This document shows positions 10,431-52,832 of a DNA stretch of 57,475 bases, one piece after another. The stretch is from Patescibacteria group bacterium (GTDB taxonomy: Bacteria > Patescibacteriota > Dojkabacteria > JAKAPS01). The position numbers were made by a program, and so were the translations under genes. Position 1 is the first letter of the stretch. Every line of letters begins with the position of its first letter. Under the pieces are notes generated by a model, which was not told the origin of the DNA, made no database searches, and worked only from the letters and a program-made list of their open reading frames with translations. The DNA lies in NCBI GenBank assembly GCA_025450075.1, contig JANWIC010000001.1, positions 1-57,475 of the forward strand. Reading direction: 5' to 3'.

Positions 10431-11513
10431 ATGAAACAATTCATGAGAAGAAAAAAAGTACGTGGATTTATCGCGCTACTCTCTGCTGCTGCCTCATTCA
10501 TGATGGTTTCTATTCCTACGTTAGCTGCGTCGCTTGGTGCAATGAGTGTTGCGCAATCTACCATGCTTCCTGCTACAACAGCAAGTTATACACTTAACTT
10601 TACAACTACAACAGGTTCAACATTAAAAGAAATTGATTTTCAATTTGCAACCACATCAGGAGGAAGTACAAAACCGACAAATTTAGATTTAACAGGAGCA
10701 ACACTAGGCACACTCGTAGGATTATCAGGATCCTGGTCATTAGATACGACTGGCGCAACAGCTGGACTTTTGAAAATTACTTATTCGACTGGTGTGAGTA
10801 TAGCTGCAAGTACTGCAATTCAAGTACCTTTGAATAATATTGTAAATGGACATATTGGAGATTGTACTTCAAGCTCTACAGCATATAGTGATACCTGTTA
10901 TATAGGAATAACAACATATTCTGACCTTGGAATAACGAGTGTTGATAATGGAAATGTTCCATTTAACTTTACCCAGGATCCATCTATGACCTTTACAATC
11001 GGAGGGGTATCATCAGGTACTTCTACTAATGGAGTTTCTACAACAGCAACTACAACATATAATACAATTCCATTTGGCCACATAATTATCAATGATGTGA
11101 ATTATGCAGCTCAACAATTAACTGTTACTACAAATGCACCGAATGGCTATAGCGTATATATGAAAGTGTCAACACAACTGACGGGAATTTACACAGGTAC
11201 ACTGGTAAGTCCGTTTTCTGGTAACAGCGCGACCTGGGCATCTCCACAGAGCTGGAGAGTCCCTACCGGTACAACAAACGGAACAGACACTATGTGGTTT
11301 GGGGCAAATACATCTGATACACGTGTAAGCGGATGGTCATCAGCTTCAGCAAAGTTTGGGCCTGCAAATAGCACAAATAATGTTGTTATGTATTCATCTT
11401 CAGCTGATACAGGGACAAGCGCCTATGTTACCTATGCAATTGAAGGAAATATTTACCAAGATCCTGATACATATAGTGGAAATATTGAATATACTATTGT
11501 CCCTAATTATTAA
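10431..11513 (+). CDS. Secreted Ser/Thr-rich two-domain surface protein, WxL-like C-terminal domain (paralog of 26262..27392)
   Basis: Signal peptide; LTVTTNAPNGYSVY; C-terminal QDPDTYSGNIEYTIVPNY. Confidence 0.75.
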   Translation: MKQFMRRKKVRGFIALLSAAASFMMVSIPTLAASLGAMSVAQSTMLPATTASYTLNFTTTTGSTLKEIDFQFATTSGGSTKPTNLDLTGATLGTLVGLSGSWSLDTTGATAGLLKITYSTGVSIAASTAIQVPLNNIVNGHIGDCTSSSTAYSDTCYIGITTYSDLGITSVDNGNVPFNFTQDPSMTFTIGGVSSGTSTNGVSTTATTTYNTIPFGHIIINDVNYAAQQLTVTTNAPNGYSVYMKVSTQLTGIYTGTLVSPFSGNSATWASPQSWRVPTGTTNGTDTMWFGANTSDTRVSGWSSASAKFGPANSTNNVVMYSSSADTGTSAYVTYAIEGNIYQDPDTYSGNIEYTIVPNY

Positions 11514-13701
11514 TGTCCAATTTAGATTGTGAGTATTCATTTGTTTGCCCATTCTTTTGATAGCAAAGTAGAAGATACTCTTTTGTCTTTTGATCATCAG
11601 GATTTAACATTAGTGCAGAGAGCAAAAATCCTTCAGCATCTTTCGAGTCATTCTGTGCTAAATCTTCAGTACCTTTTTGGTAATAGTAAGAGAAATCCTC
11701 AATTACTGGTGTACCCGGATTGTATTGCTGCATATACGAATCTAGCTCTGAAATTGGGGTAAGATTAGTCGATTGTAAATCTTTAGCATGCTGCAATTCT
11801 GCTTGTGCAAAATCAGCATATCCCTCATTGAATAATGTAAATGCAATAAGTGCATGTTGAACAGCATAAGACTGCCTAATACTCTGTTTACTAAAATCCC
11901 TCTCATCAGGGGTGATACCAGCCAGTTTTGTGTCAATGGTTTTTGATATGTTCTCACTTTCCTGGAATTGTTTAGTTGTAAAGCTTCCTGGATCCTTTAC
12001 TACTTTTAGTAGATATCCATAAGGAATAGTGTAGTATGGGTTTCCTGATACTCCGATAGCATCTAAGGTTGTATTTGGAACAAATGATAAGAAGATAGGG
12101 TAAGAAGTTACGTCCCGTGCAATGATATCTCGAATGATTGCTTGATCAGCATTGATCTTTGTTTTAAAAATATTGGGGTAATGTTGCAAAATTGTTGTCT
12201 TGTATTTTGATACTGAAACTGGAATGATAATGACATCATCTTTTCGTATTCCCTTTACTTGTTGCTGGTATTCGTATGAAAAACAATCCACATCAGCAAA
12301 ACAGATGAGGAATGACTTAGAAGGAAGAGTTCTAAGAGTTTGGTATGCGATATATTCATATATATCATTATGGCTGTTATTCACTCCCATCCAGTTATAT
12401 CCAAGAAGAGAAATGGGGAGAAGAAATACGGCAAAGTATATCCAAATTGTTTGTTTTTTCTTCCATAGATATCTGATAAGTCCAAATATTCCGATTGGAA
12501 TAAAGAGTGAAAAGATGACTTCAGATTGAAGGTAAAGTCGAAGGTGAATACCAATATCTGTAATCAATGTTGCCTGGCCAGCTTCGCTATCCCATGGAAT
12601 GGCGGTATATGAAGAAAGAAATATACCAGCTATTAAGAAACTAAAAAAAAGAAGAAATGCAATATCATATCCATACCATTTCTTCTTTTTTTTCATAAGA
12701 ATGAAAACAATTCCTAAAAGTGCGAAAGGGAATGTCCATAGAAAATGATTGAGTAAAAATCCAACATAATGAGGAATTTCTGCAAATTGTGTACCAATAT
12801 CAATATGTGAGTTATATGATCCTCCTACACCAGAACTTCCAAAATCTTTACGAAGGATTATATTAATAATATCTTGTGCTGAGGTTGGATTCCTCCAGCT
12901 TAATAATGATCCTGAATGGGAAAGAGTAGGGAGATAAAAATATGGTAGGATAAAAAAGATGAATGATACTAATATACCGCATACTGCTATGAATATATTC
13001 TTCCACAGCTTCTTTTTATCCTGTAGATACAAAGCAGTGATAAATATTGAAATGGCAGGGATAATTAATATTGAAACCTGCTGATTGGAAAGCATCAAGC
13101 CGACAGCTGCACATAAAACAAAAAAAACGATATAGCTTGTTTTAACATCCTTTTCCCAGAAATATTTGAATAAAAGACATAAATACAATACTAAAGCAAT
13201 GAAAAAATCATTTAGTGGAAATACTTCAGTTATGCCAGAGTAGAGGAAAAAAAGATAAGAGAAGGCAAGAATTAATGAACCGGCAATTGAGGCAATGTTT
13301 TTTTGAAGTATTGTAGAGCTTTCATCTTCTTTTGTATGGTCAAAAATGTATACCAATAAATGCGTAGATGAAAGATATATCAAGACTACTGCAAGAGAAT
13401 GAAATAATCCTGATGAAATGTTCAATCCATATGCAGGGTTTAGAAAAGGGATATGCGTAAAAAAATATCCGATAAGCATATATAGAGGATATGCTGGAGG
13501 ATGTGGTATTCCTTTGGTAAAAGCTGCTGTTATCATTTCGCTGCTATCCCCATAACCTAAGGCATAGTGTGAAGTTATGGTAAGGTAGACGAGAAAAACT
13601 AAAAGAAAGAGAAGAATTGCTGTTACAACTTTTGTCCTATTTGGTATAGTAATAGTATGAGTATTTTGTCTTTTCTTCATAAGGATGATGTTATCTGTCA
13701 T
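11503..13701 (-). CDS. DUF2723 / TMEM260-like GT-C glycosyltransferase with C-terminal TPR
   Basis: GDSSEMITAAFTKGIPHPPAYPLY, EVFPLN, many TM helices, ALMLNPDD TPR-like end. Confidence 0.85.
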   Translation of the reverse strand: MTDNIILMKKRQNTHTITIPNRTKVVTAILLFLLVFLVYLTITSHYALGYGDSSEMITAAFTKGIPHPPAYPLYMLIGYFFTHIPFLNPAYGLNISSGLFHSLAVVLIYLSSTHLLVYIFDHTKEDESSTILQKNIASIAGSLILAFSYLFFLYSGITEVFPLNDFFIALVLYLCLLFKYFWEKDVKTSYIVFFVLCAAVGLMLSNQQVSILIIPAISIFITALYLQDKKKLWKNIFIAVCGILVSFIFFILPYFYLPTLSHSGSLLSWRNPTSAQDIINIILRKDFGSSGVGGSYNSHIDIGTQFAEIPHYVGFLLNHFLWTFPFALLGIVFILMKKKKKWYGYDIAFLLFFSFLIAGIFLSSYTAIPWDSEAGQATLITDIGIHLRLYLQSEVIFSLFIPIGIFGLIRYLWKKKQTIWIYFAVFLLPISLLGYNWMGVNNSHNDIYEYIAYQTLRTLPSKSFLICFADVDCFSYEYQQQVKGIRKDDVIIIPVSVSKYKTTILQHYPNIFKTKINADQAIIRDIIARDVTSYPIFLSFVPNTTLDAIGVSGNPYYTIPYGYLLKVVKDPGSFTTKQFQESENISKTIDTKLAGITPDERDFSKQSIRQSYAVQHALIAFTLFNEGYADFAQAELQHAKDLQSTNLTPISELDSYMQQYNPGTPVIEDFSYYYQKGTEDLAQNDSKDAEGFLLSALMLNPDDQKTKEYLLLCYQKNGQTNEYSQSKLDINN

Positions 13702-23980: not shown

Positions 23981-25516
23981 ATGTTTCATAAATCGGTTAT
24001 TAATGTTATTGGAAGTGTTTTGCTATCCTTTATTACAGCAATAAATATCCTCATTCTTGCGCGAATCCTTTCTCCGTCCGTACTTGGCCAATATACCTAT
24101 GCATTATGGATGATTAATATCAGTGTGATTATTGCAACAATGGGTATACCTGTTACATTACTTAAATATATCCCAGAAATGACACAAAGGCTTGGAATCA
24201 TGCGAGCAAGGATGCTTTTTATGTTTTTAAGCGGTTTAGGTTTTCTTTTTTCGATAATTATTGCATTATTTATCGCTTTTATTCTTCCAAGACTGCAACA
24301 CGCAACAGGATATCTTACTTATCTTTACCTGATTGCAGGATCAATTCCACTTCTGGTTTTTATTAATTTATTTTCTTCATATTTTAAGAGCAGGATGAAG
24401 TTTGGAAGCATCTATACATTTAATGCTATTTATTCTGTTCTATTATTCTTTGCAACATGCTTTGCTGCTTTTGTAACAAAGAATGTAACTCCTGTATTGT
24501 GGGGTTATTTTATTGCAGCCCTTGTCTATTCAATATTTTTACTTTATTTGGTTTTGAGAAATATTCATATCCGACTTTATATTCCAACTATCAAGGATAT
24601 AAAAACACTCCTTTTTGAAAAGAAAAGCATTGCAGATATGGAATTAAAAGAGGTACTTACTTATATATTTTCAGTTTCCTTCATATTATTACTGGATAAT
24701 ATCATTTGGGATCGTTCAGAAGTATTTTTCTTAAAACATTTTTCAACAAATGAGCAAATAGCATATTATTCAATCGCTTTTTCTGTTGTTCAAAAAATTA
24801 TGTATTTATTGCCAACAGCGTTAAGTGGATATTTGTTAACAACATATTCCTTGCACAGGGCAAAAGGGAGGGAGAAAGAAATCATGGAGATACTCTTTAA
24901 AGCTTGCAAATTTTTATTAATTATAAACATACCATTGGCGTTGGGTGGTGCAGCTCTTTCTACTCCCATAATAGAATACCTGTTTGGTCATGCATATGTT
25001 GGAGCAACAGGAAGTCTTCGTTTCTTATTTCTAGGGGCGATTGCCTCTCCTGCATCTCTTACGGTAAGTACAGTTATCTATGGCCAGAAAAGGCAATATA
25101 TGATCTTGTATTACGGTATTATTTGTACGATCTTGTCAATTATTCTTGATATTATCCTCATTTCACATTTTTCAGCAATTGGGGCTGCAATTGCAAATTC
25201 AATCGTCCAACTGTTATTTGGTTCCCTTCTTTTATTCTATGCATACAGGTCTCTTCATATTGACTATCCATATCGGTTTGGTGCATCCATTACAGGGGTA
25301 TCGCTTCTTCCTGCAATTTTACTATTTTTTCTCAACACAGAATTTCATAGTATAATTGTATTTATCCTTTCAATAATTGCAGCGAGCGTTATTTATTGCT
25401 ATTTGATTCTAAAACTTGGGATAGTAAACCGTAAAGATATCTCATTTATCGATCCTTTTATCAAAAACGATAAGGTGAGGGGAATGCTCGATCGCTTTTT
25501 TCTCGCATCAATATAG
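23981..25516 (+). CDS. Wzx-type polysaccharide flippase (MOP superfamily)
   Basis: About 14 TM helices; LARILSP...GQY, AYYSIA, LI......GAAIA. Confidence 0.88.
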   Translation: MFHKSVINVIGSVLLSFITAINILILARILSPSVLGQYTYALWMINISVIIATMGIPVTLLKYIPEMTQRLGIMRARMLFMFLSGLGFLFSIIIALFIAFILPRLQHATGYLTYLYLIAGSIPLLVFINLFSSYFKSRMKFGSIYTFNAIYSVLLFFATCFAAFVTKNVTPVLWGYFIAALVYSIFLLYLVLRNIHIRLYIPTIKDIKTLLFEKKSIADMELKEVLTYIFSVSFILLLDNIIWDRSEVFFLKHFSTNEQIAYYSIAFSVVQKIMYLLPTALSGYLLTTYSLHRAKGREKEIMEILFKACKFLLIINIPLALGGAALSTPIIEYLFGHAYVGATGSLRFLFLGAIASPASLTVSTVIYGQKRQYMILYYGIICTILSIILDIILISHFSAIGAAIANSIVQLLFGSLLLFYAYRSLHIDYPYRFGASITGVSLLPAILLFFLNTEFHSIIVFILSIIAASVIYCYLILKLGIVNRKDISFIDPFIKNDKVRGMLDRFFLASI

Positions 25517-25571: not shown

Positions 25572-26177
25572 ATGGTATCAAACATTCTAAGTTTTATCAT
25601 TCCATATATCAGATCACTGATTGTTCTTGGATTAATAGTGGCTACATCTTTTATATTCCAGGTAGTGAATAATGCAAACAGGAGTTATAGGATTTTAAAA
25701 ATTAAGTTTGATGAGCACATTCCATTAATTCCTGTATTTATCTATCCATATATATCGTTTTTGTTGTTCATTCCGGTATCTTTGATGGTTATTGTTAAAG
25801 TTCGTCCCGATCTTTTTCTTCCCGTTATCATAACATTCACTATTGCCGGCATTATCTGTACTCTTTTTTTCTATTTCTTCCAAACCTATATTGAAAAACC
25901 TGAAATTGAAGCAATCTTCCATGCACATAAACTATTGAAAAAAGTTCAGGATGCAGTGGAGCCATACAACTGCTTTCCAAGTTCACATGTTCTCTATACC
26001 GTCTTAACGGCATTTTTTCTTGTAACAGTTTTCCCTGCACTTTTTATATTTGTAAACATTTATACCTTTCTTGTTTGTGCTTCTACTGTGTTTGTAAAGC
26101 AGCACTATATTCTTGATATTTTCGGTGGGCTAGCATTGGCTGCACTGATGTACTTCACGGTTATAAAACTAGTCTGA
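25572..26177 (+). CDS. PAP2-superfamily membrane phosphatase/phosphotransferase
   Basis: NCFPSSH and STVFVKQHYILDI..G motifs; TM helices. Confidence 0.85.
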   Translation: MVSNILSFIIPYIRSLIVLGLIVATSFIFQVVNNANRSYRILKIKFDEHIPLIPVFIYPYISFLLFIPVSLMVIVKVRPDLFLPVIITFTIAGIICTLFFYFFQTYIEKPEIEAIFHAHKLLKKVQDAVEPYNCFPSSHVLYTVLTAFFLVTVFPALFIFVNIYTFLVCASTVFVKQHYILDIFGGLALAALMYFTVIKLV

Positions 26178-26261: not shown

Positions 26262-27392
26262 ATGATAAAAACTGCTCGAAAATTATTTGTATTCCTCACA
26301 GTAGCAGGTCTTGCTTTAACACTGAATGTAGCTGGCATTAATGCAGCTCAATTGACTAGCCAATCTATTTCGCTTTCAAATTCAGCTCCAGCAACACCTT
26401 CTTCTTATACTATTAAATTTACCACAGCGGGAACAGCAAGTCTTAATGACGTCGACTTTGTGTTTGCTACAACACCTTCTGGAGCCGCGACGACTCCATC
26501 AGGTATGAGTCTTGCCAGCGCAACCCTGACATCAACTACTAACCTTGGATCAGGATGGACAATTGATACATCACAAGCCGGATCTGGTATCCTTTCAATC
26601 ACGAATGCCACAGCTCAGAATATTGCTTCTGCAACTGTTGCCACAGTGGTATTAGGCGGACTTACAAACCCAGCTATCGGAAGTGGTGCCGCACAGTGTG
26701 CAAAATCTGATGCAAACGGTTCTTCTGGAACTTGTTATATCCGATTTACCACAAAAGCTGCTGGACCTACTACAATAGATACTGGCGCAGCATCGTTTAC
26801 CCTTGTAGCCACAACATCAGCTACTGCAACACTTGATCCATCTATGTCGATGATCATCAGTGGAGTAGCAGCAGGACAGACTAATGATGGAATCGTAGTC
26901 TCAACTGGAGACAGCTCCACATACAATACACTGCCTTTTGGCCACATGGCTGTAAATACGATCTACGACACCGCTCAGGAAATTCAAGTTTACACAAACG
27001 CACAACATGGATATACGGTTACTATGGCTATGACAACTCCAATGACTGGATCAGTCGGATCTAACCAAATTTCTCCATTTACTGCAAATAGTGCAACTTG
27101 GCTTGCCCCTGTAGCATGGACCGCTCCAACAGGAACTACACCAAATACCAACACAGCTTGGATTGGTGGAAATACTACTGATGGAACTCGTGTAGGAGGA
27201 GGTGTAGGAGGCTCACAAGGTGGAAATCAAACCTTTGGACCTGTAAATACAACTCCTGTTAATGTATCTTTATCTAACCAACCTGATAATGGAACTGCTG
27301 TATTTGTTTCATACCAATTACAAGCAAACCCATATCAGCCTGCAGATACTTATACTGGTGTATTGCAATATAACGCAACGCCAACGTATTAA
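26262..27392 (+). CDS. Secreted Thr/Ala/Gly-rich two-domain surface protein, WxL-like (paralog of 10431..11513)
   Basis: Signal peptide; shared motifs SYT..FTT, DF.FATT, TCYI, DPSM, YNT.PFGH, TNA..GY.V, YQ..DTY.G...Y...P.Y. Confidence 0.8.
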   Translation: MIKTARKLFVFLTVAGLALTLNVAGINAAQLTSQSISLSNSAPATPSSYTIKFTTAGTASLNDVDFVFATTPSGAATTPSGMSLASATLTSTTNLGSGWTIDTSQAGSGILSITNATAQNIASATVATVVLGGLTNPAIGSGAAQCAKSDANGSSGTCYIRFTTKAAGPTTIDTGAASFTLVATTSATATLDPSMSMIISGVAAGQTNDGIVVSTGDSSTYNTLPFGHMAVNTIYDTAQEIQVYTNAQHGYTVTMAMTTPMTGSVGSNQISPFTANSATWLAPVAWTAPTGTTPNTNTAWIGGNTTDGTRVGGGVGGSQGGNQTFGPVNTTPVNVSLSNQPDNGTAVFVSYQLQANPYQPADTYTGVLQYNATPTY

Positions 27393-27600: not shown

Positions 27601-29970
27601 CTATGATGAAAGAGAGTTTAATGCACTTTGTGCAATATTGTTTCCGGGGTCTAGCTTAAGTATATTTTTGTATTCTTTTTTAGCCATATTATTTTGTTTA
27701 GTATATTGATAATACTGAGCAACGATAAGCCTGGCATTCAAATTAAACGGATTAAGGAAGGTTGCTCGGATTGCAAAATCATATGCGTTTTTTGCTTGTC
27801 CTTGCTTTTGTATTGTCTCTAAAGCATTTTGATAAAATGCATCAGACGAGGGAGATGATTCACCAAGATGGAATGGACCATTATTTTTAGGATGGCTTAA
27901 GTTGTTTGCAACCTGTTGGAATAGTGAATTGCTTTTATCAAGCTTTGCAGCCAGATCTGACAAACTTACTGCATTGGCATTATCTCCTTCTTCCCAATGG
28001 AGGTATGAATTCAATGAGATTAAGCGTGCAAAAAATTCATCATAAAACTTCTTCCAGTAATTCTTGAATTCATAACCGTTATTCGTGTAATTATTGAAAT
28101 ATTCAGCATAAGAAATTGACTCGGTATATGGATAAATTTCTAATGAATTAGGAATCTTTGTAACAATTTTTCCTACATAACCATTCGGAAGAGTGTAGAA
28201 ACTACCCCCATCAAGACCCATAAAATTTACGAATTCACTATCAACATCAGATTCATAAACGTCTTTGCCTTTATACAGGTTCCAGGAAATGATATCAGCT
28301 ATGTTATATGGGCCGGTTTTGTAATAGAACTCTTGTAACCCCGGTTTTTTATCCAGATAGCTTTGTCTTAAGGAATAGTCAGCAGGAACAATGGTAATAT
28401 CATTTCTGACTCCTAATACTTGTTGGGTATATAGGAAAGAAAAACAGGATGGGTCTGAGAAACAGACTAATATACTATTTTTCTTCATACTATTTAGGCT
28501 CACTTTTGCATATTGATCTATATATGTAAATGTATGGAGGTCTGCATCATTATAATTTGATCTAATTAAATAAGAGATACCAACCATCCCTATCATTAGA
28601 AGAAATAGTGTTGCAAATCTAATTGCATAGTTAGTGTATTCACCTTCTTTTGTACTATTTAAAGATGAAAGTATTGAAATAAGTAGCTTGAAAGTTACAT
28701 ATATTCCCACAGGTATGAAGAGAGCAAGGATAACATCAGCCATTATGTATTGCCGTTGAATAATAGCAATATCTCCAAAATGTTTTACGAAATCAGCAAT
28801 TGGAGATGGAAATTTTGCATACATAGCAAAAAGCAATCCTCCTACTAAATACAACGAACCAAGATAGGCGAGAAGACGCCTGTTTCGAAGGATAAGAAAA
28901 ATTGCTCCAAGGCTTGCAAAGAGTAATCCGACATAGGTGAAATCATTATATACTGAAGCTAGATAAGGTTGAATTGAATCAACACTTGCCTGAAAATTAA
29001 ATGAAGATCCATATGCGTTAGATGATGCAGAAGCATAGTTTTGACGAGTTATGTCTGACCACAGACCACTAAGATTATTATTTAGTCCCCATGATACTGA
29101 ATGGTCAAGATTGTTGTAAAAAAAGAGAAGAAAAAATGGAAGGAAAAAAGAGAGCAAAAATGCGATTATTAAATAACTAAGTGTCTTAAATGAAAGTAAT
29201 TGTCTAAAAATATGAGTTCTGACAATTATATAAAGGATATATAAAAAGATGACAGGGTAGATAATAACTATTGTTTGTAGATGAGAAAGCGCTAATCCTG
29301 CTATGATTGCAATCCAAATGAGCCACTTCCTTATCCTATCCGCGGTCTGAGTAGTAGTTTTCCTTTGCTCGTTAAATTCTTTTGTCTCAATATCGGGAAA
29401 TTTTTGCTTATATAAAATTCTTGTTAATCTAAGAGTTAGATAAATTAACAGAATGACGAAAAAATCATTCATTGCAAAAACCTCGACAGTGTTTGCATAG
29501 AACCAGAAAAGAAAAGAAAATGCTAAAAATAGTGCAGATATTGCTGAAATAATAATCTTTATATTTTCAAAGTTTGTCTCTTCTACATAATAAAAGAATG
29601 TTTTATATTTTTTCTTTTTAATCTTTTGTTCAATACCTCTCAGTTTTACATTCTTTAAAATTTCAAGAGATGTTGCATAAACTATAACAACCGTAAGAGA
29701 TTGAAAAAAAACACTGGTGAGATTCGCTTTGAATGCAATTGTCCCAATGGGAATAATATGGGTAAAAAGGAATATGATAAGGATATAAATTGGGTATCCT
29801 GGAGCATGGGCAACACTAAGTTGATAACCCATTAGAGTGAGTTCATCTGAATCTGCCATTGATACATGATATCGTGCACAAGTAAAGAGATAAACTCCAA
29901 ATACGAGACAAAATAGTAATGTTCCAACTTGTTGACTTTTTGATTTCGGAAACAGTTTAAGAATACTCAT
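27601..29970 (-). CDS. DUF2723 / TMEM260-like GT-C glycosyltransferase with C-terminal TPR (paralog of 11503..13701)
   Basis: ADSDEL......VAHAPGYPIY, EVFAMN, ILKLDPGN TPR end. Start may be 29970 (ATG) or 29994. Confidence 0.85.
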   Translation of the reverse strand: MSILKLFPKSKSQQVGTLLFCLVFGVYLFTCARYHVSMADSDELTLMGYQLSVAHAPGYPIYILIIFLFTHIIPIGTIAFKANLTSVFFQSLTVVIVYATSLEILKNVKLRGIEQKIKKKKYKTFFYYVEETNFENIKIIISAISALFLAFSFLFWFYANTVEVFAMNDFFVILLIYLTLRLTRILYKQKFPDIETKEFNEQRKTTTQTADRIRKWLIWIAIIAGLALSHLQTIVIIYPVIFLYILYIIVRTHIFRQLLSFKTLSYLIIAFLLSFFLPFFLLFFYNNLDHSVSWGLNNNLSGLWSDITRQNYASASSNAYGSSFNFQASVDSIQPYLASVYNDFTYVGLLFASLGAIFLILRNRRLLAYLGSLYLVGGLLFAMYAKFPSPIADFVKHFGDIAIIQRQYIMADVILALFIPVGIYVTFKLLISILSSLNSTKEGEYTNYAIRFATLFLLMIGMVGISYLIRSNYNDADLHTFTYIDQYAKVSLNSMKKNSILVCFSDPSCFSFLYTQQVLGVRNDITIVPADYSLRQSYLDKKPGLQEFYYKTGPYNIADIISWNLYKGKDVYESDVDSEFVNFMGLDGGSFYTLPNGYVGKIVTKIPNSLEIYPYTESISYAEYFNNYTNNGYEFKNYWKKFYDEFFARLISLNSYLHWEEGDNANAVSLSDLAAKLDKSNSLFQQVANNLSHPKNNGPFHLGESSPSSDAFYQNALETIQKQGQAKNAYDFAIRATFLNPFNLNARLIVAQYYQYTKQNNMAKKEYKNILKLDPGNNIAQSALNSLSS

Positions 29971-30050
29971 GAAATGTTTTGGATTTGACACCATTTAGCT
30001 TTGCATTTAGAATGATCATAAACAACATTGACCTTTATGTCAAACTGCCT

Positions 30051-30988
30051 ATGAAAACCCCTATAAAATGCAGTGTAGGAATTACAGCATATAACGAGGG
30101 AAAAAATATTTCCAGAATTTTAAACGCTTTACTGCGTCAAAAACTTCATGATGTCATTATAGATGAGATTCTTGTAATCTCATCCGGAAGTATTGACGAT
30201 ACAAACAATATCGTAAAAGAATCTGCAAAAAAAGATAAACGGATAAAACTTACTGTAGAAAGTAAACGTAAAGGTAAAGCCAGTGCTGTTAATATCTTTA
30301 TTGATAATGCTAAAAATGAAATTTTGGTTTTAGAAAGTGCTGATACAATCCCGGATAAAAATACTATTGAACGGATGGTCCGGCCTTTTAAAAATGACCA
30401 TATTGGAATAACTGGATCACATCCAATCCCAATAAATTCAAAAAAAACACTTGTCGGCTATGCTGTGCATTGTATGTGGGATTTGCATCATCAGATTTCA
30501 CTTAACCATCCAAAAATGGGTGAAATGATTGCATTTCGTAAATCATTCAAAAAAATACCGGTTCTTTCTGCAGTTGATGAAGTTAATATAGAAGCCCTCA
30601 TAAAAGGACAGGGGTACAAGTCAAAATATATAGCACATGCAATTGTAAGAAATAAAGGACCTGAAACATTAAAAGAATATATATCACAGCGAAGAAGAAT
30701 TGCTTTCGGTCATGTTGCAACAAAGATTGAACATGGTTATAAGGTATCTACATTTAGTGGGAAAAGAGCTTTGTATCTGATGATAAAAAACCTGGCAAAA
30801 GTGGCAGTTACAAAACCATTAACATTACCAAAAGAAATCCTTTTTTCTGCAGGGACTGCTTTTCTTGAAGTATATGTTAGAATCTTGGGAATTATAGATT
30901 ACCGGGTGTATAAGAAGAATTATGCTGTTTGGAAAATAGCTTCAAGTACAAAAGACCTTCGGATTAAGGTAAAGCCTGAGATACAAAC

Positions 30989-30992
<4 letters not shown>
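30051..30992 (+). CDS. GT2 glycosyltransferase
   Basis: VGITAYNE, SGSIDDT, GKASAVN, SADT, QRRR. ATG 30051 preferred. Confidence 0.88.
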
Positions 30993-33615
<2,623 letters not shown>

Positions 33616-33619
<4 letters not shown>

Positions 33620-35472
33620 ACATTTATTACTTTGATATTTGGTTCTTCTTCAGGTATGTTATTTATGACCTCCCCAAGTTCAGTAATAGGTGGTTCTTTG
33701 TGTACTTTAATCTGAACTTTTTCTTCCTCACGAGGAGTTGGAGGTGCAATTTTTTCTGTTGAGATCGGGGTAACAGGAGTATTGGTGCTTGCTTCAAGCG
33801 ATGGCGATGATGGATTCTGAGGTGCTACTACACCAACTGGGACACCAGATCTCTTAGTATTCAAATCAACTGGAGTTTGTATTCCTTCTTTATTAAGTTC
33901 CTTTTTCTCCTGCTTGTCAATTTCTTGTTTAGTTTCAGTTGCTGCAAGAGATTGTAAGAAGTCAGGAGTGAATATTTTATCTAATTCATCGTTTACATCA
34001 TCAAATCCCACATCAGGAGAACCAATTTTATCTCTCAATTCTTTATATGCATCAGTACGTAATAACTTGAGAAGTTCTTTTTTAATCTTTTTCAAGTCGT
34101 TTAATTCTATATCATCAGTTTTTCCTTGTGTTACGATGAAAAGGAAAACAATTTCCTCTTCAAGAGAGTAGGATACTGCGCTTAGTTGGTTACAGATCTC
34201 AAGCATTCGTTTTCCTCTTTTAATTTCTCTTTCAGTTTCTTCTGTAATTTCTGTATTAATATTCTCATAAGATTTCACTTCGTTATATCTTTGCAGTTGT
34301 GATGCTGCAACCTCACTTAACTTTCTAAGAAGTTTAGTTTGGACACTTCCTCCAATACGAGATACTGAGGTTCCTGAATCAACAGCAGGAAAGATGCCAG
34401 CATGCATAAGATGTGAATCAACATAAATATGTCCGTCAGTAATGCTCATGAGGTTTGTCGTGATGTATTCTGATACATCACCTGATTGAGTTTCTGCAAG
34501 TGGAAATGCTGTTAAAGATCCTCCTCCAAATTCTTTTGAAAGACGTGCGCTTCTCTCTAGAAGTCTTGAATGCAAAAAGAAAATGTCTCCTGGATACGCA
34601 TCTCGACCAGGGGAACGTTTTAACAATAGCGACATTTGACGGTATGATTTTGCTTGTTTTGAAAGATCATCATAAATTATGAGGGCATTTTTTCCCTGCT
34701 TCATAAAATATTCACCTATGGAGCAACCTGCATATGGCGCTATGTAGTTAAGAGAGGGTGGATCATCAGCTGTTGCAAGAACAACTGTGGTATATTCCAT
34801 AGCTCCTGATGCTTCCAAACTTTCAATGATACCTTTCACTTTTGCTTTTTTCCCACCGATACTGACATATATACAAGCAATATCTTTTCCTTTTTGGTTA
34901 TTAATAATGTTTGTCATGAGAGTCGTTTTCCCCGTTTTCCTATCTCCTATGACAAGTTCTCGCTGTCCTCTTCCGACAGGAATGATTGAATCAATGACAA
35001 GTACTCCAGTCCTGATTTGTTCTTTAATTTGTTCACGAGCATTCACCGGTGGAGCAGGTACTTCAATTGGAGCAGATTTGTGAGGCCCCAGTTCTCCCTT
35101 ACCGTCAAGAGGTTTGCCGATTGGATTAATGACTCGTCCTAATACGCCTTCTCCAACAGGTACTGTTACGCGTTTCCTTGATGATTTTACAATGTCTCCT
35201 TTTGAGATTTTCGTAAAATCACCTAATACGACCGATTCTACAAGATCTTGGTTAATACCAAGGATAAGGGCATTAACTTCTTCACCTTTTGCTTCAATTT
35301 TTATCATGTCGTCAATCCTTGCATTTGACAGCCCTTTTATTTTGCAAATTCCATCTCCGATATATACGACTTCACCAATCTCAATGACATGAGGAACAAT
35401 TTTTGTATCTTGAGGGATAGAAGCCTCTAAATAGCTGGTAACTTTATTTTCCGATTCCTTTTTTGGTTTCAT
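33616..35472 (-). CDS. atpA: F1 alpha subunit with ~100-aa low-complexity C-terminal extension
   Basis: GRGQRELVIGDRKTGKT, YDDLSKQA..YRQMSLLL.R.PGRDAYPGDIFFLHSRLLER, SVSRIGG. Confidence 0.97.
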
Positions 35473-35480
35473 GGCAGTAC

Positions 35481-36008
35481 TTAATTTGTCTTGCTCATTG
35501 CTTTTTTCGTCCTCTTTAATGACTTAATCCATTCATTTTCGTAGGATTTCAGATGGTTTCTTAATGAAGCATCAAAGATATACTTGTCTTCTTTAATCAC
35601 AATACCACCGATAAGCCCTGGATCAATTTTGATATTTAGAATGACTTTTTTATTTAGTTTCTTTTCAATTTTATCTGCAAGTTCTTTAATATCTGGTTCT
35701 GTTAAGGGAATTGCAATTGATACATTTACCATCTTGTATGTATTTGTCATATCCTGTATTTTATTCACCAGTACTTTTAATTCTTTTGAACTAAATGCCC
35801 CTAAGTTATCATTTGCTTGGATAAGCAGTATTTCTTTCAACATGGGATTCGTTGCTTCGCTTGCAATAACTTCAAGTACTTTGTCTTTTGTCACTTTTCT
35901 AATCCCTTCAAGTTTACCAAGTATATGTTCAAGATTTAAAAGCACCTGCTCAAGTGTTGATTTCTTATATATTGCCGATGAAATTGTTTTATATAGGCTT
36001 TGTTCCAT
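35481..36008 (-). CDS. atpH: F1 delta (OSCP) subunit
   Basis: V..A.PL......L...L.KKV.L...IDP.LIGGIVI......DASL; directly upstream of atpA. Confidence 0.85.
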   Translation of the reverse strand: MEQSLYKTISSAIYKKSTLEQVLLNLEHILGKLEGIRKVTKDKVLEVIASEATNPMLKEILLIQANDNLGAFSSKELKVLVNKIQDMTNTYKMVNVSIAIPLTEPDIKELADKIEKKLNKKVILNIKIDPGLIGGIVIKEDKYIFDASLRNHLKSYENEWIKSLKRTKKAMSKTN

Positions 36009-36010
36009 AT

Positions 36011-36520
36011 TTATTCTTCAAATCTCATCTCATCCAGAGATTTTTCAATTATCTCTTTGTGATCGTTATATGATAAGGTCTTTTCAAATATTTTTTGTGT
36101 TACATTCATGACAAGAGATACCATATTTTTTTCAACTTCTTCTCTTTGTTCTTTTTCAAATTCTTTAATGCGCTCAGAAGCCTCTGATCTCATGGTATCT
36201 TCTAAAGTTTGCAGTTCCTGCATTTTCTTATTCATATCCTCCTGCATCTTGTTTAGCTTGATATCACATTCATTATTGATTTTTTGACTTTCTTCCTCAG
36301 CTTTTTTTGCTTGTGTTAGTGCCTCATCCATTTTTTGTTTTGCCTCATTTGCCATTTGTTCACTTTCCTTTGCTCTTTCGTCATATGTTTTTTTTATAAT
36401 TTCGATTTGTTCTTTTATTTTTCCCTCATCTTCTTTTTCTTTGCGGAAAGCTATAAAGAAAAAAAGCATCAGGCCAAGTATGAGGACATTTAATGGTATA
36501 AGGGCGTAACTTAATATCAT
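36011..36520 (-). CDS. atpF: Fo subunit b-like stator protein
   Basis: Single N-terminal TM helix, long E/K coiled coil, C-terminal KI....L...DH..II...L; upstream of atpH. Confidence 0.75.
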   Translation of the reverse strand: MILSYALIPLNVLILGLMLFFFIAFRKEKEDEGKIKEQIEIIKKTYDERAKESEQMANEAKQKMDEALTQAKKAEEESQKINNECDIKLNKMQEDMNKKMQELQTLEDTMRSEASERIKEFEKEQREEVEKNMVSLVMNVTQKIFEKTLSYNDHKEIIEKSLDEMRFEE

Positions 36521-36535
36521 AGTAGGACGAATAAA

Positions 36536-38641
36536 TTATTTAATGAGTACAGCGGATGCAATAGATAATATAGCAATTCCTAAACATAATACCAAGCTTA
36601 TTGAAAGCGCAACTTGAATTTTTGTTCTTGCAAACGGATTTCTTCCAATTGCTTCAAGCCCTCGAGCTGACATGAATCCAATACTTACAGATGAACCTAG
36701 AAGACCGAGCCCGGCAGCAATTCCTGCAGCAAGAACTTTAGCACTGTTTGATGAATTTTGTGTTGCATTCACGATTACCTGTTTTAAACCGCTTCCTAAA
36801 TTTTGTAATGGATTTGGAGTTTCTTTTCCATTGACATCAAATTCATTACTTGTTCCTGATAATCCAAGTCCATGGATTGTTATGATATCTTTTTGCATCG
36901 GTTTACTAATTGTTACATTTCCTGTCCAAACACCGTTTGTAAATGTATCTCCTGTGGATGGGGAGATTGTTGTTGTTCCGTCAGCTAAAGAAATTGGTCC
37001 CGCGAATGTTCCTAAAATATTATTGTTATTATCCTCCGCAGTAACTACCACTACAAATGGGACTCCCAATAGCTGTGGACTTGGAATTGTCCTGATAAGT
37101 AAATGGCCACCACCGATATTGGTATTTAATATTTTTTGATTAAGAGGAACTGCCTGGATGATTACTTGTGCTTGTGCTTGGACACTTCCTGATTGGTCTG
37201 TTGCTACAGCAGTTATCGATGCATTTCCTGGAGTTGTTCCTGCATTAATGCTTGTTGAAGAGCCATAGCTTTGTGCAAGAGTACCTGCGCCTGCCGATAG
37301 TTGCCAACTTATTTGTGTATCAGTAATTGGGGTATTTGAAGCATCATATGCTTGTGCATTTACTATGACACTTCCACCAGCTGCAACTACAGCTGGATTA
37401 GGGTTAATACTTACGTGATCGATCTTAAGGTTAGATAAGGGTTGATATGGTCCAGTTGGAGTAGGAGAAGCCGTTGAAAGTGGTTGATATGGTCCACCTG
37501 TAGTGAGAGGAGATGGAATAGGGGTAGGGGTTGGTGTTGAACCTCCACCGCTACTACTTCCGCCAGAGCTTCCGCTGCTTCCTGATCCCGGATTATTGTT
37601 ATCACTAATATTTTCGTTAATAACGGTGATGGATGCTACTGCTCCAACGCTTCCCACACTTACCTTTACTGTATTATTGTACACACCAGGAGTAGTCCCT
37701 GAAACAAAATTACCATTTGAATCAATAGTTCCTCCTCCATTTACAACACTCCAAGTTGGGGAAGAAAGACTTATCGGGTTACCGTATTGATCTGTTCCTG
37801 TTACGGAAAATGGCTGTGTTCCGCCTTTTGGAAGAATACTAGTTAAAGGTGAAATCTTAAGTGTAGATAAAGGTCCGCTGGTCGCATTTTCATAAAAATT
37901 TACTCCTGAGGAAATATTAGAACCACCCCCGATTGATCCGTTAATTGTATAGGTACCGATTTTGCTCCCCAGTGTCACGGAAGTCGAAGCTGTACCAGAA
38001 AAATTTGTCGTTACACTATAGTTGGAAAGTCTTTGTCCGCTTGCTCCGGGAGGATATCCCGGAATTGAAAAATTGACACCAATATTGGGAATCGGGTTAC
38101 CGTATTGATCAATTGCTTTTACTGTTAAACCTTGTGAAAGAGTCGTTATGACTTGTCCAGTTTGAGCTGATCCTCCGATTAATGATAGAAAATCCTGGTT
38201 ACCGGGATTAACAACAAAAGACGGAGATATTCCGTTAGTAAATGGCGAGTTATATGCAGTAATCGTATCAGGATAAGCAGTTCGGGTAATAGTAACTGTT
38301 CCATTCCATACACCATTTGAAAAATTATTAGTACGTGATGGAGACATTGTATTTGTCGCATCAGAAAGATTAATCACCCCATTAAAGGAAGTATCAACCT
38401 GAGATGAACTATTACATTTGTATAATGTAACGGAAAAAGGAGTTCCAGCATTGATTGGGTTATTTACAAACGATGTGTCAAATACGACAGTATTTGTTAA
38501 TCCTTGGCATTGTGTGCTTTGTGCATACACAATACCTGCAACAAGCAGGAAAATAGAAGCGAAAGGAGCAAGTATAGCACTGAAAATACTTAACACCATC
38601 GCCTTTCGGAAATATTTCATTTTAATAGGCAGTTGTGTCAT
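36536..38641 (-). CDS. Secreted multi-Ig-like protein fused to a C-terminal ATP synthase subunit c-like hairpin
   Basis: Signal peptide; Ig-like repeats (DQYGNPI twice, F.NGVW.G.VTI twice); GS/PT linker; last 69 aa AAGIAAGLGLLGSSVSIG...EAIGRNP...; occupies the atpE position. Confidence 0.88.
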   Translation of the reverse strand: MTQLPIKMKYFRKAMVLSIFSAILAPFASIFLLVAGIVYAQSTQCQGLTNTVVFDTSFVNNPINAGTPFSVTLYKCNSSSQVDTSFNGVINLSDATNTMSPSRTNNFSNGVWNGTVTITRTAYPDTITAYNSPFTNGISPSFVVNPGNQDFLSLIGGSAQTGQVITTLSQGLTVKAIDQYGNPIPNIGVNFSIPGYPPGASGQRLSNYSVTTNFSGTASTSVTLGSKIGTYTINGSIGGGSNISSGVNFYENATSGPLSTLKISPLTSILPKGGTQPFSVTGTDQYGNPISLSSPTWSVVNGGGTIDSNGNFVSGTTPGVYNNTVKVSVGSVGAVASITVINENISDNNNPGSGSSGSSGGSSSGGGSTPTPTPIPSPLTTGGPYQPLSTASPTPTGPYQPLSNLKIDHVSINPNPAVVAAGGSVIVNAQAYDASNTPITDTQISWQLSAGAGTLAQSYGSSTSINAGTTPGNASITAVATDQSGSVQAQAQVIIQAVPLNQKILNTNIGGGHLLIRTIPSPQLLGVPFVVVVTAEDNNNNILGTFAGPISLADGTTTISPSTGDTFTNGVWTGNVTISKPMQKDIITIHGLGLSGTSNEFDVNGKETPNPLQNLGSGLKQVIVNATQNSSNSAKVLAAGIAAGLGLLGSSVSIGFMSARGLEAIGRNPFARTKIQVALSISLVLCLGIAILSIASAVLIK
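37773..38110. repeat. 20-bp exact direct repeat encoding DQYGNPI in two Ig units
   Basis: ATCGGGTTACCGTATTGATC at 37773-37792 and 38091-38110. Confidence 0.85.
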
Positions 38642-42765: not shown

Positions 42766-43536
42766 ATGAAAAAATTTCGAGTTTTAGTCATAGGTATTGG
42801 AATATTGACGGGTATAATAGCCGGCTCCTTTTACCTTGAGCATAACAAAAAGGTTGCTACTATCATTGCTCAAAGACCAATAATATCTTCAATTCCTACT
42901 ATAAGTGCATCGCTAAGTACTTCACCTACACCTAGCCCAACACCGTCTAATACTTGTAATGCACCTCTTGTGCTAGTTGATAAAATCCATGCATTACCTC
43001 CAACATATGTTCCACCAGACTTAGTATATATATCACAATATAATATACCTGTTGCAAATACTTCATATCAAATTAGAAAAATAGTTGTTCCTGATCTTGT
43101 CGGGATGATCAAAGATGCAAATGCCCAGGGGATAAATCTTATTGTTATTTCTCCATACAGGTCCTACAATACGCAGGCTGAAGTTTATGATTATTATACA
43201 AGGACTGATGGTGTGACTGCAGCAAATCAGTACAGTGCAATCCCTGGGCACAGCCAGCACCAATTAGGAACCGCTATCGATTTTAGTACAAATGAAATCA
43301 GCAATGGGCTTGACCAAAGTTTTGCTGACACGAATGCTGGAAAATGGATGGCAGAAAATGCATATAAATATGGATTTGTTTTAGCATATCCTATTGGTGA
43401 TGAGTCCATAACTGGTTATGAATATGAACCGTGGCATTGGAGATATATGGGGGTAGATAATGCATTAAAGATAAAAAATAGTGGATTAATTATGCAGCAG
43501 TATTTAGAAAAATACGGATACCTTCCTAATTGCTAG
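42766..43536 (+). CDS. D-Ala-D-Ala carboxypeptidase, M15B (VanY-like)
   Basis: TM anchor; SPYRS...Q, SA.PGHSQHQLGTAID, YEPWHWRY.G. Confidence 0.93.
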   Translation: MKKFRVLVIGIGILTGIIAGSFYLEHNKKVATIIAQRPIISSIPTISASLSTSPTPSPTPSNTCNAPLVLVDKIHALPPTYVPPDLVYISQYNIPVANTSYQIRKIVVPDLVGMIKDANAQGINLIVISPYRSYNTQAEVYDYYTRTDGVTAANQYSAIPGHSQHQLGTAIDFSTNEISNGLDQSFADTNAGKWMAENAYKYGFVLAYPIGDESITGYEYEPWHWRYMGVDNALKIKNSGLIMQQYLEKYGYLPNC

Positions 43537-50558: not shown

Positions 50559-52832
50559 ATGCGAAAAAAGGAGTTATCAGTTATTGTTCCTGTCCGAAAT
50601 GAGGAGGGAAATATTTATTCTTTAACAAAGCGTATTGCTCAGGCGTTGGATGGAGAAGGAATTACCTATGAGATTTTATATGTTGATGATCACTCAACAG
50701 ATAATACAAGGTCTCAAATTGCCTCTTTAAGCAATACATATCCCATAAAACTGGTTGACTATGAAGGAAAACCAGGGAAAGCCTATGCATTAATGCATGG
50801 CTTTACCCAAGCAACTTATTCAACAATTGCCATGATTGATGGAGATTTACAATATCCACCAGAAGCATTACCTGGGATGCTGGAAAAATTAGTAAATAAG
50901 AAAGCAGATATTGTTGTTGCAAATAGGATAGAGGCAAATACTCCTCTAGTAAGAAGAGTAGTGAGCAGAGGATTCCATCTTTTCTTTACCAGATTCTTAC
51001 ATAAAATTGATTGTGATACACAATCCGGCTTAAAAGTTTTCAGGAAAGAGATCTTATCACGGTTTAGTCTAAATCCCGCACCCTGGGCATTTGATCTGGA
51101 ATTTCTTATTAAAGCACAGAATGCAGGTTATAAAATAGATACAGTCAATATTGTTTTTGAAAAAAGACAGTCTGGAAACTCAAAACTTCGAGTCATGAAT
51201 GGGTCATATCAAATCGGTAAATCAGCTTTAGCATTATGGATAAAACCTCATGAAATAGTTCCATTCACACCTAAAATGGCAAAGAAAGAAGGAGAAGGAT
51301 TCCATTACAAGGGTCAAAAATTTGTCCATCATACCACATTAGATGTTTCCGAAAGTGCATTGCATCGCGTTACCCCAAAGCAGGTAATTTTCCTTCTTTG
51401 TATTGCTCTGGCTCTCATAATTGATTTAATTATCAACTGGCATGCAACAATTGTTCTTCTTATCGCAGTTTTAACTGCATTATATTTTATTGATCTGCTT
51501 TTTAATCTCTTCTTAATATACAGAAGCTTCTCTAAAACACCAGAAGTACAAATTACAGATGAAGAAATAGAAAAAGTTCAAGAAAGTGCATGGCCTTCAT
51601 ATACTATCTTTTGCCCTCTTTACAAAGAAAGCAATGTTTTACCTCAATTTGTTACAGCAATGAGCCAACTTGAATATCCAAAAGACAAGTTGCAAGTAAT
51701 GTTATTATTGGAAGAAGATGATGCTGAAACAATTAAGGCAGCACAAGATTGCAATCTACCTCAATATTTTGATATTGTAATTGTTCCCCATTCACAACCA
51801 AAAACTAAGCCGAAAGCTTGTAATTATGGACTTACCAAGGCAAGAGGAGAATATGTTGTTATTTATGATGCAGAGGATATTCCTGATCCTAAGCAATTAA
51901 AAAAGGCGGTAATCGCTTTTGAGAAATCAGGACCAAAAGTTAAATGTGTTCAGGCAAAGCTAAATTTTTATAATACGCATCAAAATATTTTAACGAGGGT
52001 ATTTACAGCAGAATATTCCCTTTGGTTTGATTTAGTATTGACAGGACTTCAATCCATAAATGCTCCAATTCCGTTGGGTGGAACTTCAAACCATTTTAAA
52101 ACACAAGATCTTCGATCTTTGCAAGGATGGGATGCATTTAATGTAACAGAAGACTGTGACCTTGGAATGAGGATAGCTAAAAAGGGTTTTCAAACATGTA
52201 TTGTCGATTCAGTAACCCTAGAAGAAGCAAATAGTAATATATTTAACTGGTTTAGACAAAGGACACGATGGATCAAAGGGTATATCCAGACCTACCTTGT
52301 CCATATGCGACGTCCTGGTGAATTTATGAGAGATTTTAAAACTCCGCTTTTTCCTGCTTTCCAACTTATTGTGGGAGGAAAAGTGATGTCTATGTTCATC
52401 AACCCTTTGATGTGGATGATTACCATTAGCTATTTTGCATTCAGGCCCTTTATAGGGAAATTTATTGAATCTTTCTACCCTACACCGGTATTGTATATGG
52501 CAGTATTTTCCTTAATTTTCGGTAACTTTTTGTATTTATACTACTATATGATAGGTTGCGCAAAACGAGGAGATGATGATTTGGTAAAGTATGTTTTTTT
52601 TGTTCCAGTTTATTGGTTGGGAATGAGTATCAGCGCATTTCGTGCAGCAAGTGAAATGCTTTATAAACCGCATTTTTGGGCTAAGACAGTCCATGGACTT
52701 CATTTAAATAACGAAAAATCTAAAGACCAAGCAGAAATGCTTATCGGAAGAGGACTTGTAGACGAAGGGATTTCCAATGCTCATATTACTGTTTCTGCAG
52801 TTTATGCAGATATAGGAGACATTCATCATTAA
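50559..52832 (+). CDS. Double GT2 protein: DPM-synthase-like domain plus processive cellulose-synthase-like domain
   Basis: Domain 1: VDDHSTD, IDGDLQYPPE, DTQSGLK. Domain 2: TKPKACN, YDAED, TEDCDLG, QRTRW, W.KT.HG. Confidence 0.9.
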   Translation: MRKKELSVIVPVRNEEGNIYSLTKRIAQALDGEGITYEILYVDDHSTDNTRSQIASLSNTYPIKLVDYEGKPGKAYALMHGFTQATYSTIAMIDGDLQYPPEALPGMLEKLVNKKADIVVANRIEANTPLVRRVVSRGFHLFFTRFLHKIDCDTQSGLKVFRKEILSRFSLNPAPWAFDLEFLIKAQNAGYKIDTVNIVFEKRQSGNSKLRVMNGSYQIGKSALALWIKPHEIVPFTPKMAKKEGEGFHYKGQKFVHHTTLDVSESALHRVTPKQVIFLLCIALALIIDLIINWHATIVLLIAVLTALYFIDLLFNLFLIYRSFSKTPEVQITDEEIEKVQESAWPSYTIFCPLYKESNVLPQFVTAMSQLEYPKDKLQVMLLLEEDDAETIKAAQDCNLPQYFDIVIVPHSQPKTKPKACNYGLTKARGEYVVIYDAEDIPDPKQLKKAVIAFEKSGPKVKCVQAKLNFYNTHQNILTRVFTAEYSLWFDLVLTGLQSINAPIPLGGTSNHFKTQDLRSLQGWDAFNVTEDCDLGMRIAKKGFQTCIVDSVTLEEANSNIFNWFRQRTRWIKGYIQTYLVHMRRPGEFMRDFKTPLFPAFQLIVGGKVMSMFINPLMWMITISYFAFRPFIGKFIESFYPTPVLYMAVFSLIFGNFLYLYYYMIGCAKRGDDDLVKYVFFVPVYWLGMSISAFRAASEMLYKPHFWAKTVHGLHLNNEKSKDQAEMLIGRGLVDEGISNAHITVSAVYADIGDIHH

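Follow-up and report, generated by a model that had tools for sequence, protein, structure and literature searches.

In the stretch of DNA analysed here (the window, 57,475 nucleotides of contig JANWIC010000001.1 from a Patescibacteria group bacterium), the first gene of an F-type ATPase operon encodes a hairpin of the subunit c type fused to a signal peptide and a long chain of immunoglobulin-like (Ig-like) domains. The hairpin is without the ion-binding carboxylate, the operon is without subunit a, and the fused gene is best regarded as a proton-blind c paralogue rather than as subunit c proper. The anatomy of the system is solid, conserved and, as far as searched, unreported; the mechanism that we propose for it, in which ATP hydrolysis would be used to work on domains outside the cell, is plausible.

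The C-terminal hairpin resembles the subunit c family in its pair of transmembrane (TM) helices, the first of which is Gly-rich, and in its polar R-N-P loop. With Pfam ATP-synt_C (PF00137), residues 637-700 score 26.7 bits, above the gathering score of 24, and the final 74 residues alone 33.4 bits (E 5.6e-8). With these 74 residues, phmmer retrieved 29 distinct PDB sequences at E ≤ 1, all of them ATP-synthase c subunits (best match 7wem_A, E 2.3e-6), and a profile of 40 family members likewise found c subunits only (10 sequences at E ≤ 1e-3, best 2.6e-9). All 40 members match PF00137 at E ≤ 0.01. The atpE equivalog level was not reached: the best NCBIfam model, NF005363, has a cut-off of 71 bits, and the score was 29.5.

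The Glu of the PDB c subunits aligns to a Leu in the window protein, the helix 2 of which contains no acidic residue. Across the family, the ion-site column of helix 2 is acidic in none of the 40 fused hairpins (0/40) versus all 47 canonical c subunits (47/47). Helix 1 and the loop of the fused hairpins are conserved at least as strongly as in canonical c. Constraint is looser in the middle of helix 2, with column entropies of 1.6-2.7 bits versus 0-2.0 bits in canonical c, where 6 of the 10 middle columns have at most 0.34 bits. In a metagenome scan the Glu was present in 76 of 80 loci among the matches listed, which are mostly canonical c genes. Ions cannot drive the rotation of a c-ring that has no carboxylates; because the carboxylate is absent from the hairpin, we file the gene as an F-type ATPase variant and not as subunit c proper.

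The fusion open reading frame (ORF) starts with ATG and runs unbroken for 701 amino acids, with hydrophobic stretches at residues 13-42, 636-655 and 673-701 only. In homologues, the region equivalent to residues 1-40 closes with KA, HA or QA, and the signal peptide of the window protein would be cleaved at the putative site VYA↓QS. Pfam Big_1 matches residues 172-249 (E 1.8e-11, 44.5 bits against a gathering score of 34.9) and is matched by 37 of the 40 family members. The domains, numbered D1 to D5 from the N-terminus, follow an A-B-B-hinge-B-A pattern: D1 and D5 share 38% identity over 84 residues (E 2e-15; hhalign probability 99.75%), and D2, D3 and D4 make up a second, mutually related type (hhalign 91-98%). 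The beta-sandwich or Ig-like naming of D1-D5 rests on Pfam, hhalign and DSSP. An AlphaFold2 monomer model, with a mean predicted local distance difference test (pLDDT) score of 80.5 and a predicted template modelling (pTM) score of 0.45, begins with a helix at residues 7-35, continues with five beta domains that mostly exceed pLDDT 90 and are interrupted by disorder at 346-401, and closes with a helix in the linker (611-627) and the two helices of the hairpin (633-663 and 669-700). No paralogue of the ectodomain was found in the same genome, and a protein atlas returned no usable match for the fusion protein. The domain types of the ectodomain (Big_1, Invasin_D3) do recur in giant surface proteins of the Candidate Phyla Radiation (CPR), 2,000-7,600 amino acids in length.

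A first-pass annotation made from the DNA alone had already described most of this. Its modular Ig-like ectodomain is borne out by the Big_1 match, by the homology of D1 and D5 and by the common type of D2-D4; the GS/PT hinge and the two copies of GPYQPLS that it listed are both visible in the translation; and the three hydrophobic stretches agree with the topology that it called coherent, in which the Ig-like domains lie outside the cell and the RNP loop points to F1. The ATP-synt_C match that it anticipated for the hairpin is above the gathering score, with PDB matches that are all c subunits. It overlooked the missing carboxylate of helix 2, the tight a-less operon headed by the gene, and the canonical operon on another contig.

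The fusion gene comes first in the order fusion-b-delta-alpha-gamma-beta-epsilon, a tight operon in which the spacing of successive genes ranges from -14 to +15 nt. No match to PF00119 (subunit a) was obtained in the window. Alpha and beta reach the NCBIfam equivalog cut-offs (atpA 555 vs 484, atpD 611 vs 463); gamma, delta, epsilon and b stay below theirs, though their Pfam domains are present. Judged from the sequences, the system retains a full rotor, a full stalk and an intact alpha3beta3, together with the ring helix and the F1-facing loop of the hairpin, and has lost the side that faces subunit a. A promoter and terminator scan gave chance-level results (23 found vs 26.6 expected); amid these, a -35/-10-like site lies upstream of the fusion gene at 38706-38677 (-).

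The genome (1.11 Mb, 93.5% complete) contains two F-type gene sets. Contig C16 carries a complete canonical a-c-b-delta-alpha-gamma-beta-epsilon operon, with a full-length epsilon and with the genome's single over-threshold ATP-synt_A match beside a 68-residue c that has the Glu. Between the window set and this canonical set, identity is 41% for alpha, 53% for beta and 20% for gamma. Given two F-type systems, a Glu-less c and no a, the fusion gene belongs to a separate paralogous system, from which ion translocation is probably absent. The first-pass annotation had called the gene a subunit c fusion; the fusion of a c hairpin stands, but the hairpin is not the cell's working subunit c, as there is no Glu, no a and a score below the equivalog level. 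The canonical delta on C16 is short (131 residues; L003:344-739) against the full-length 175 residues of delta in the second operon, and short deltas in CPR F-ATPases are noted in a recent preprint.

A protein word-index search (385-1227 amino acids) yielded 15 proteins including the query, 649-772 amino acids long, one of them named Candidatus Howlettbacteria; their source labels read "hypothetical protein" or "F-type H+-transporting ATPase subunit c". In a genome collection, 32 loci (L011-L042) had a match reaching into the ectodomain, and their record titles name CPR2, CPR3, Berkelbacteria, Microgenomates and generic Patescibacteria. For L016, L017, L019, L020, L023, L025, L030, L032 and L041 the automated title reads Gammaproteobacteria or Pseudomonadales, which is probably wrong to judge from the genome sizes (0.9-1.8 Mb) and the phylogeny of the operons. 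F1 or stalk genes directly follow the fusion gene in 28 of the 32 loci, and of the other four, three are cut off by a contig edge and one is a giant variant. The operons of L017 and L019 are rearranged, with gamma-beta-epsilon upstream of the fusion gene and b-delta-alpha downstream. By tblastn, subunit a was found within 10 kb of none of the 32 fusion loci; of 48 canonical CPR loci, 41 have it as a neighbour of c. Elsewhere in the fusion genomes, subunit a was detected in 28 of 32 and a second, short c in 27 of 32. Three of the four a-negative genomes hold alpha/beta beyond the fusion-linked pair, and the missing a is likely a matter of fragmentation.

In a quick maximum-likelihood tree of beta (61 rows, alpha as outgroup), all 20 fusion-linked betas fall into one clade with a support of 90 in the Shimodaira-Hasegawa-like approximate likelihood-ratio test (SH-aLRT), and 19 of the 20 are grouped at SH-aLRT 100. 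The 40 fused hairpins are split from the 47 canonical c subunits on a single branch (SH-aLRT 97.7). The P-loop, GERTREG and Walker B motifs of beta are each kept in 19 of the 20 fusion-linked proteins, and the arginine-finger motif of alpha in all 23 (23/23). The fusion-linked system thus looks to be of one origin and to have a catalytically intact F1. Fusion-linked epsilons measure 79-118 residues (21/21), versus 134-154 in canonical sets (15/18). Delta is full length in 26 of 27 fusion-linked cases (166-202 residues); only 8 canonical deltas were detected with the queries used, and these have 74-215 residues. Alpha is longer in the fusion-linked sets (530-694 vs 453-544 residues), with variable low-complexity N- and C-terminal extensions of a median of about 30 residues each. 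In the window, the C-terminal extension of alpha is P/E/K-rich, of low complexity and about 110 residues long (33616-33950, -).

This anatomy immediately raises the question of what such a complex would do. We propose, giving the idea an even chance, that it is an ion-uncoupled, ATP-hydrolysing F-type motor which passes torque or force via a c-like ring to extracellular domains. The C-terminal hairpins would form a c-ring-like oligomer, the conserved RNP loops of which would dock the gamma/epsilon rotor encoded in the same operon, while the operon's own b and delta would hold alpha3beta3 as a stator. As there is neither a carboxylate nor a subunit a, protons cannot drive the ring, and ATP hydrolysis in F1 would be its sole source of energy. 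The N-terminal helix of subunit c forms the inner ring and has its N-terminus on the outer face of the membrane. Each ring subunit would bear an Ig-like chain of about 590 residues outside the cell, and since the N-terminus of c lies outside at the inner rim, these chains would leave the membrane close to the axis about which the ring turns. The ring would then transmit torque or force to the extracellular bundle, which could have a powered role at the surface, be it attachment, movement, or the handling of surface or partner-cell material. In bacteria, the C-terminal domain of epsilon brakes ATP hydrolysis; its absence here would amount to a missing brake, which favours a motor. More tentatively, and with the chances against it, we can imagine about ten Ig-like chains at the ring axis as a rotating or twisting extracellular shaft, a winch or a drill, with which episymbiotic CPR cells could hold, pull or work the surface of a partner, the two-TM proteins of mycoplasmas being degenerate versions.

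Several points weigh against a motor. Its main weakness lies in the membrane, where, in the absence of subunit a, no known component would connect the b stalk with the ring. A canonical a and c occur in every reasonably complete genome examined, and the complex may use them. Signal-peptide cleavage, ring formation, contact with gamma/epsilon, rotation and a function at the surface are all inferred. The system is also rare: of 401 genomes sampled from the phylum, 6 have the gamma marker (E ≤ 1e-30), its own included. In the monomer model, confidence in the hairpin is no more than moderate (pLDDT 56-79). Finally, the loop motif served as the search pattern for some locus sets, where its invariance is partly built in; it is invariant also in the 15 proteins of the word-index search.

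Two other ways of reading the complex have to be weighed. Fusion copies might enter the canonical c-ring, or the second F1 might borrow the canonical a and c, in which case the ectodomain would be an appendage or a positioning tether of a proton-driven ATP synthase. Such sharing would be helped by the single canonical a and c that fusion genomes also carry, by the derivation of the hairpin from a CPR-type c with a loop motif common to both, and by the ring of Acetobacterium woodii, which tolerates a carboxylate-less hairpin. It is hard to square with an operon that encodes a separate b, delta, alpha, gamma, beta and epsilon, each divergent from its canonical counterpart, and in which the fusion gene takes the c position in every one of the 28 loci that continue downstream (28/28). 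The part of helix 2 that would face a is moreover the least conserved part of the hairpin, and we hold a mixed ring or a shared Fo to be quite unlikely. Slightly less unlikely, yet still improbable, is a static anchor, in which the hairpin, in a ring or not, would hold an adhesin or envelope protein in the membrane and dock an F1-like head that acts as an ATPase of assembly, export or conformational switching without sustained rotation. The lack of subunit a or of any other known in-membrane stator partner agrees with this, as do a neighbourhood rich in envelope and glycosylation genes, the relation of F-ATPases to type III export ATPases (which gave weaker NCBIfam matches), and the giant variants described below, which adjoin ABC (ATP-binding cassette) transporters of the MacB type, systems that perform mechanical work without rotating. 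However, a static anchor leaves the conserved rotor (gamma, epsilon) and stalk (b, full-length delta) hard to explain, and the ring-forming Gly-rich helix 1 is highly conserved.

All of these readings take the fusion protein as one product. The c-like part could instead be made or released separately, through an internal start or proteolysis, leaving an independent Ig protein. The linker contains no in-frame ATG at all, in line with the first-pass annotation, which saw none just before the c part, but it does contain one in-frame GTG 10 codons before helix 1, and some ATG, GTG or TTG occurs in the linker of 24 of the 29 intact homologues. An argument from Shine-Dalgarno sequences carries little weight here, the downstream b gene being without an obvious one too. 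Yet 5 of the 29 linkers have no possible start codon at all, the candidate starts lie at inconsistent distances from helix 1, and the alignment has no conserved Met or Val in the linker. The frames are joined in 29 of 29 intact homologues despite a linker that varies between about 19 and 58 residues in the short forms (counted from the end of the last Ig domain), so selection has kept the fusion. Among 5.8 billion proteins no short stand-alone homologue of the hairpin was found at E ≤ 1e-3, a weak negative for an 82-residue query; nor were longer proteins found at that threshold, again a weak result with hairpin queries of 82-102 residues, and the giant forms came from genome loci and not from this search. 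Separate products strike us as highly improbable, although the hairpin may still be released by proteolysis. As to an assembly artefact or a decaying pseudogene, we give it practically no credence. Four of the 32 loci are broken or cut (frameshifts in L034 and L041, N bases in L039, a contig end in L040), but 29 intact fused ORFs with 33-69% identity to the window protein are spread across lineages, and the catalytic motifs are kept; on these two grounds the pseudogene was rejected. The continuity of the frame claimed by the first-pass annotation is seen in the ORF itself, and public data agree with it at the junction. Three DNA runs yielded contigs of 151-236 nt, none of which spans the whole fusion gene; run contigs match 36686-36836 and 36564-36712 exactly, the former by a 151-nt contig of run X1 with 0 differences. 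These contigs may come from the source sample and are thus not independent support.

Known systems share parts of this architecture. The canonical F1Fo ATPase (atpBEFHAGDC) has the same c-b-delta-alpha-gamma-beta-epsilon order, the Gly-rich helix 1, the R-N-P loop and the N-terminus of c outside. The fusion system differs from it in having an operon that lacks a, a helix 2 that lacks the carboxylate, an ectodomain of about 590 residues, a short epsilon, an extended alpha, and a separate canonical operon in the genome. The N-ATPase (atpDCQRBEFAG) is similarly a second F-type operon beside a main one, but it keeps a and an ion-binding c and has another gene order. Assignment to the N-ATPases was rejected, since the window's alpha, beta, gamma and c fall short of the alt_F1F0 cut-offs: TIGR03305, TIGR03324, TIGR03323 and TIGR03322 score 515/752, 491/750, 35/282 and 17-20/131 (score/cut-off). 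A c-type hairpin without carboxylate also occurs in the hybrid c-ring of A. woodii. The c1 and c2 chains of that organism (4bem) are among the PDB matches of the window hairpin, with 4bem_J a weak match (E 0.0059). In A. woodii, the Glu-less hairpin shares its chain with a working hairpin, lies among normal c subunits beside an a, and carries no ectodomain. The surface proteins of CPR bacteria with Big_1 or invasin-type domains are akin to the fusion proteins in the domain types of the ectodomain. Unlike them, the fusion proteins, in their short and giant forms, are anchored by a c hairpin and encoded by the first cistron of an F-type operon.

The closest functional analogue is the F1-like X0 ATPase of mycoplasmas, to the families of which the window's alpha and beta do not belong by score (MSC_0618/0619 and MMOB1660/1670 give 437/570, 260/520, 365/600 and 445/850, score/cut-off). 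In the accessible part of PMC12994834, the Type 3 F1-like X0 ATPase is described as required for the extracellular MIB-MIP system, and an 87-kDa protein of its cluster, with a signal peptide, a GS-rich region, two globular domains and two C-terminal TM helices, as co-purifying with the F1-like subunits. The Type 2 F1-like ATPase is reported to drive the gliding of Mycoplasma mobile in the part of PMC3369863 consulted. As far as these partial texts go, the mycoplasma systems are alike in adding an F1-like paralogue to a genuine ATP synthase and in serving an extracellular or surface function, and the 87-kDa protein, compared by description only, has the topology of the fusion protein (PMC12994834). 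The two-TM protein of mycoplasmas is not described as c-like, and the terms 'c-ring' and 'subunit c' occur 0 times in the accessible text of PMC12994834. Differently from the fusion system, which keeps b and delta, the mycoplasma clusters have no b/delta stalk and include a 12-TM protein.

Variant forms extend the family. Giant forms occur in three loci (2,571, 2,589 and at least 1,296 amino acids), with the same type of Glu-less tail. Giant tails end in ...IKFF (L026:5240-21454; L031:4082-21711), and in L026 and L031 the fusion gene is separated from the b-like gene by an ABC ATPase and a permease of the MacB/FtsX type. The same interval also holds an fn3 protein in L026 and a second ORF of 2,408 amino acids in L031. 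The b-like gene is followed by delta in L026; L031 stops at the b-like gene. A metagenome contig (L127:8449-14473) encodes a more distant variant of 264 residues, made up of a signal peptide, an ectodomain of about 190 residues that is not Ig-like, and a Glu-less c-like hairpin that lacks the Gly motif and matches PF00137 at E 1.1e-3, below threshold. Its operon consists of this 264-residue protein, a 239-residue protein, delta, alpha, gamma, beta and an 89-residue epsilon, with no a.

The surroundings of the operon show several recurrent genes. A secreted family of about 380 amino acids without a Pfam match follows epsilon on the same strand at 70-360 nt in 10 loci (for example L013:17680-18861) and is present in 13 loci in all, the window included, often with a second and often longer paralogue; the window copy (26262-27392, +) lies 3.6 kb away on the other strand. 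Directly upstream of the fusion gene, 8-9 loci (for example L012:7682-9978) have genes for a WxL-interacting-protein-like product (PF06030) with a C-terminal TM helix and for a secreted dockerin/Big_6 protein; neither gene is in the window. Envelope and glycosylation genes of the window include two TMEM260-like O-mannosyltransferases, GT2 enzymes, a MurJ/Wzx-type flippase, PAP2 and VanY. TMEM260-like genes lie near the operon in 9 loci, the window and eight others, and one may speculate that the S/T-rich hinge is a target of O-glycosylation.

Table 1. Coordinates of the fusion gene, its protein regions, the other operon genes and envelope-related genes in the window
Feature	Position	Strand	Description
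Fusion gene	36536-38641	-	701 amino acids: signal peptide, five beta-sandwich domains, linker, Glu-less c-like hairpin
N-terminal region, residues 1-40	38522-38641	-	Basic N-terminus, hydrophobic helix, signal-peptidase-like site VYA↓QS
D1, residues 50-146	38204-38494	-	Type A beta-sandwich, homologue of D5
D2, residues 147-252	37886-38203	-	Big_1 / invasin-D3-like
D3, residues 253-344	37610-37885	-	Type B Ig-like, DQYGNPI motif
GS/PT hinge, residues 345-406	37424-37609	-	Low-complexity, GPYQPLS twice, predicted disorder
D4, residues 407-508	37118-37423	-	Type B Ig-like
D5, residues 509-606	36824-37117	-	Type A, membrane-proximal
Linker, residues 607-632	36746-36823	-	Predicted helix at 611-627
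c-like hairpin, residues 633-701	36539-36745	-	Gly-rich helix 1, loop GLEAIGRNP, helix 2 with Leu at the carboxylate position
b-like peripheral stalk	36011-36520	-	169 amino acids, one N-terminal TM helix, 15 nt past the fusion gene
Delta/OSCP	35481-36008	-	175 amino acids, full length
Alpha paralogue	33616-35472	-	618 amino acids, arginine-finger motif kept
Gamma paralogue	32660-33619	-	319 amino acids
Beta paralogue	31257-32666	-	469 amino acids; P-loop, GERTREG and Walker B kept
Epsilon	30989-31270	-	93 amino acids, beta-sandwich only, no C-terminal helical domain
Envelope/glycosylation gene	27601-29994	-	
Envelope/glycosylation gene	11503-13701	-	
Envelope/glycosylation gene	29979-30992	+	
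Envelope/glycosylation gene	50559-52832	+	
Envelope/glycosylation gene	23981-25516	+	
Envelope/glycosylation gene	25572-26177	+	
Envelope/glycosylation gene	42766-43536	+	

Rotary F-type ATPases are familiar as energy converters that are coupled to ions. In the literature searched, neither a fusion of subunit c to an ectodomain nor an a-less F-type operon is described for Patescibacteria, although the supplementary figures of the preprint 10.64898/2026.10.01.756066 may bear on this; the fusion and the operon are not described in the accessible part of PMC11738941, and a term search of PMC7304191 gave 0 matches. For metabolic reconstructions, the label "F-type H+-transporting ATPase subunit c" carried by some of these proteins is misleading. 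If the proposed motor is real, an F-type machine with full rotor, stalk and head would have been reused after the loss of a and of the c carboxylate, and the covalent link between ring subunit and ectodomain points to energy of ATP being passed across the membrane to the cell surface. The accessible part of PMC12994834 states that the coupling of mycoplasma F1-like X0 ATPases to surface systems is unknown, and for this coupling the fusion family offers an explicit, testable physical link. It would also be a candidate machine for host interaction in Patescibacteria, the surface biology of which is largely uncharacterised.

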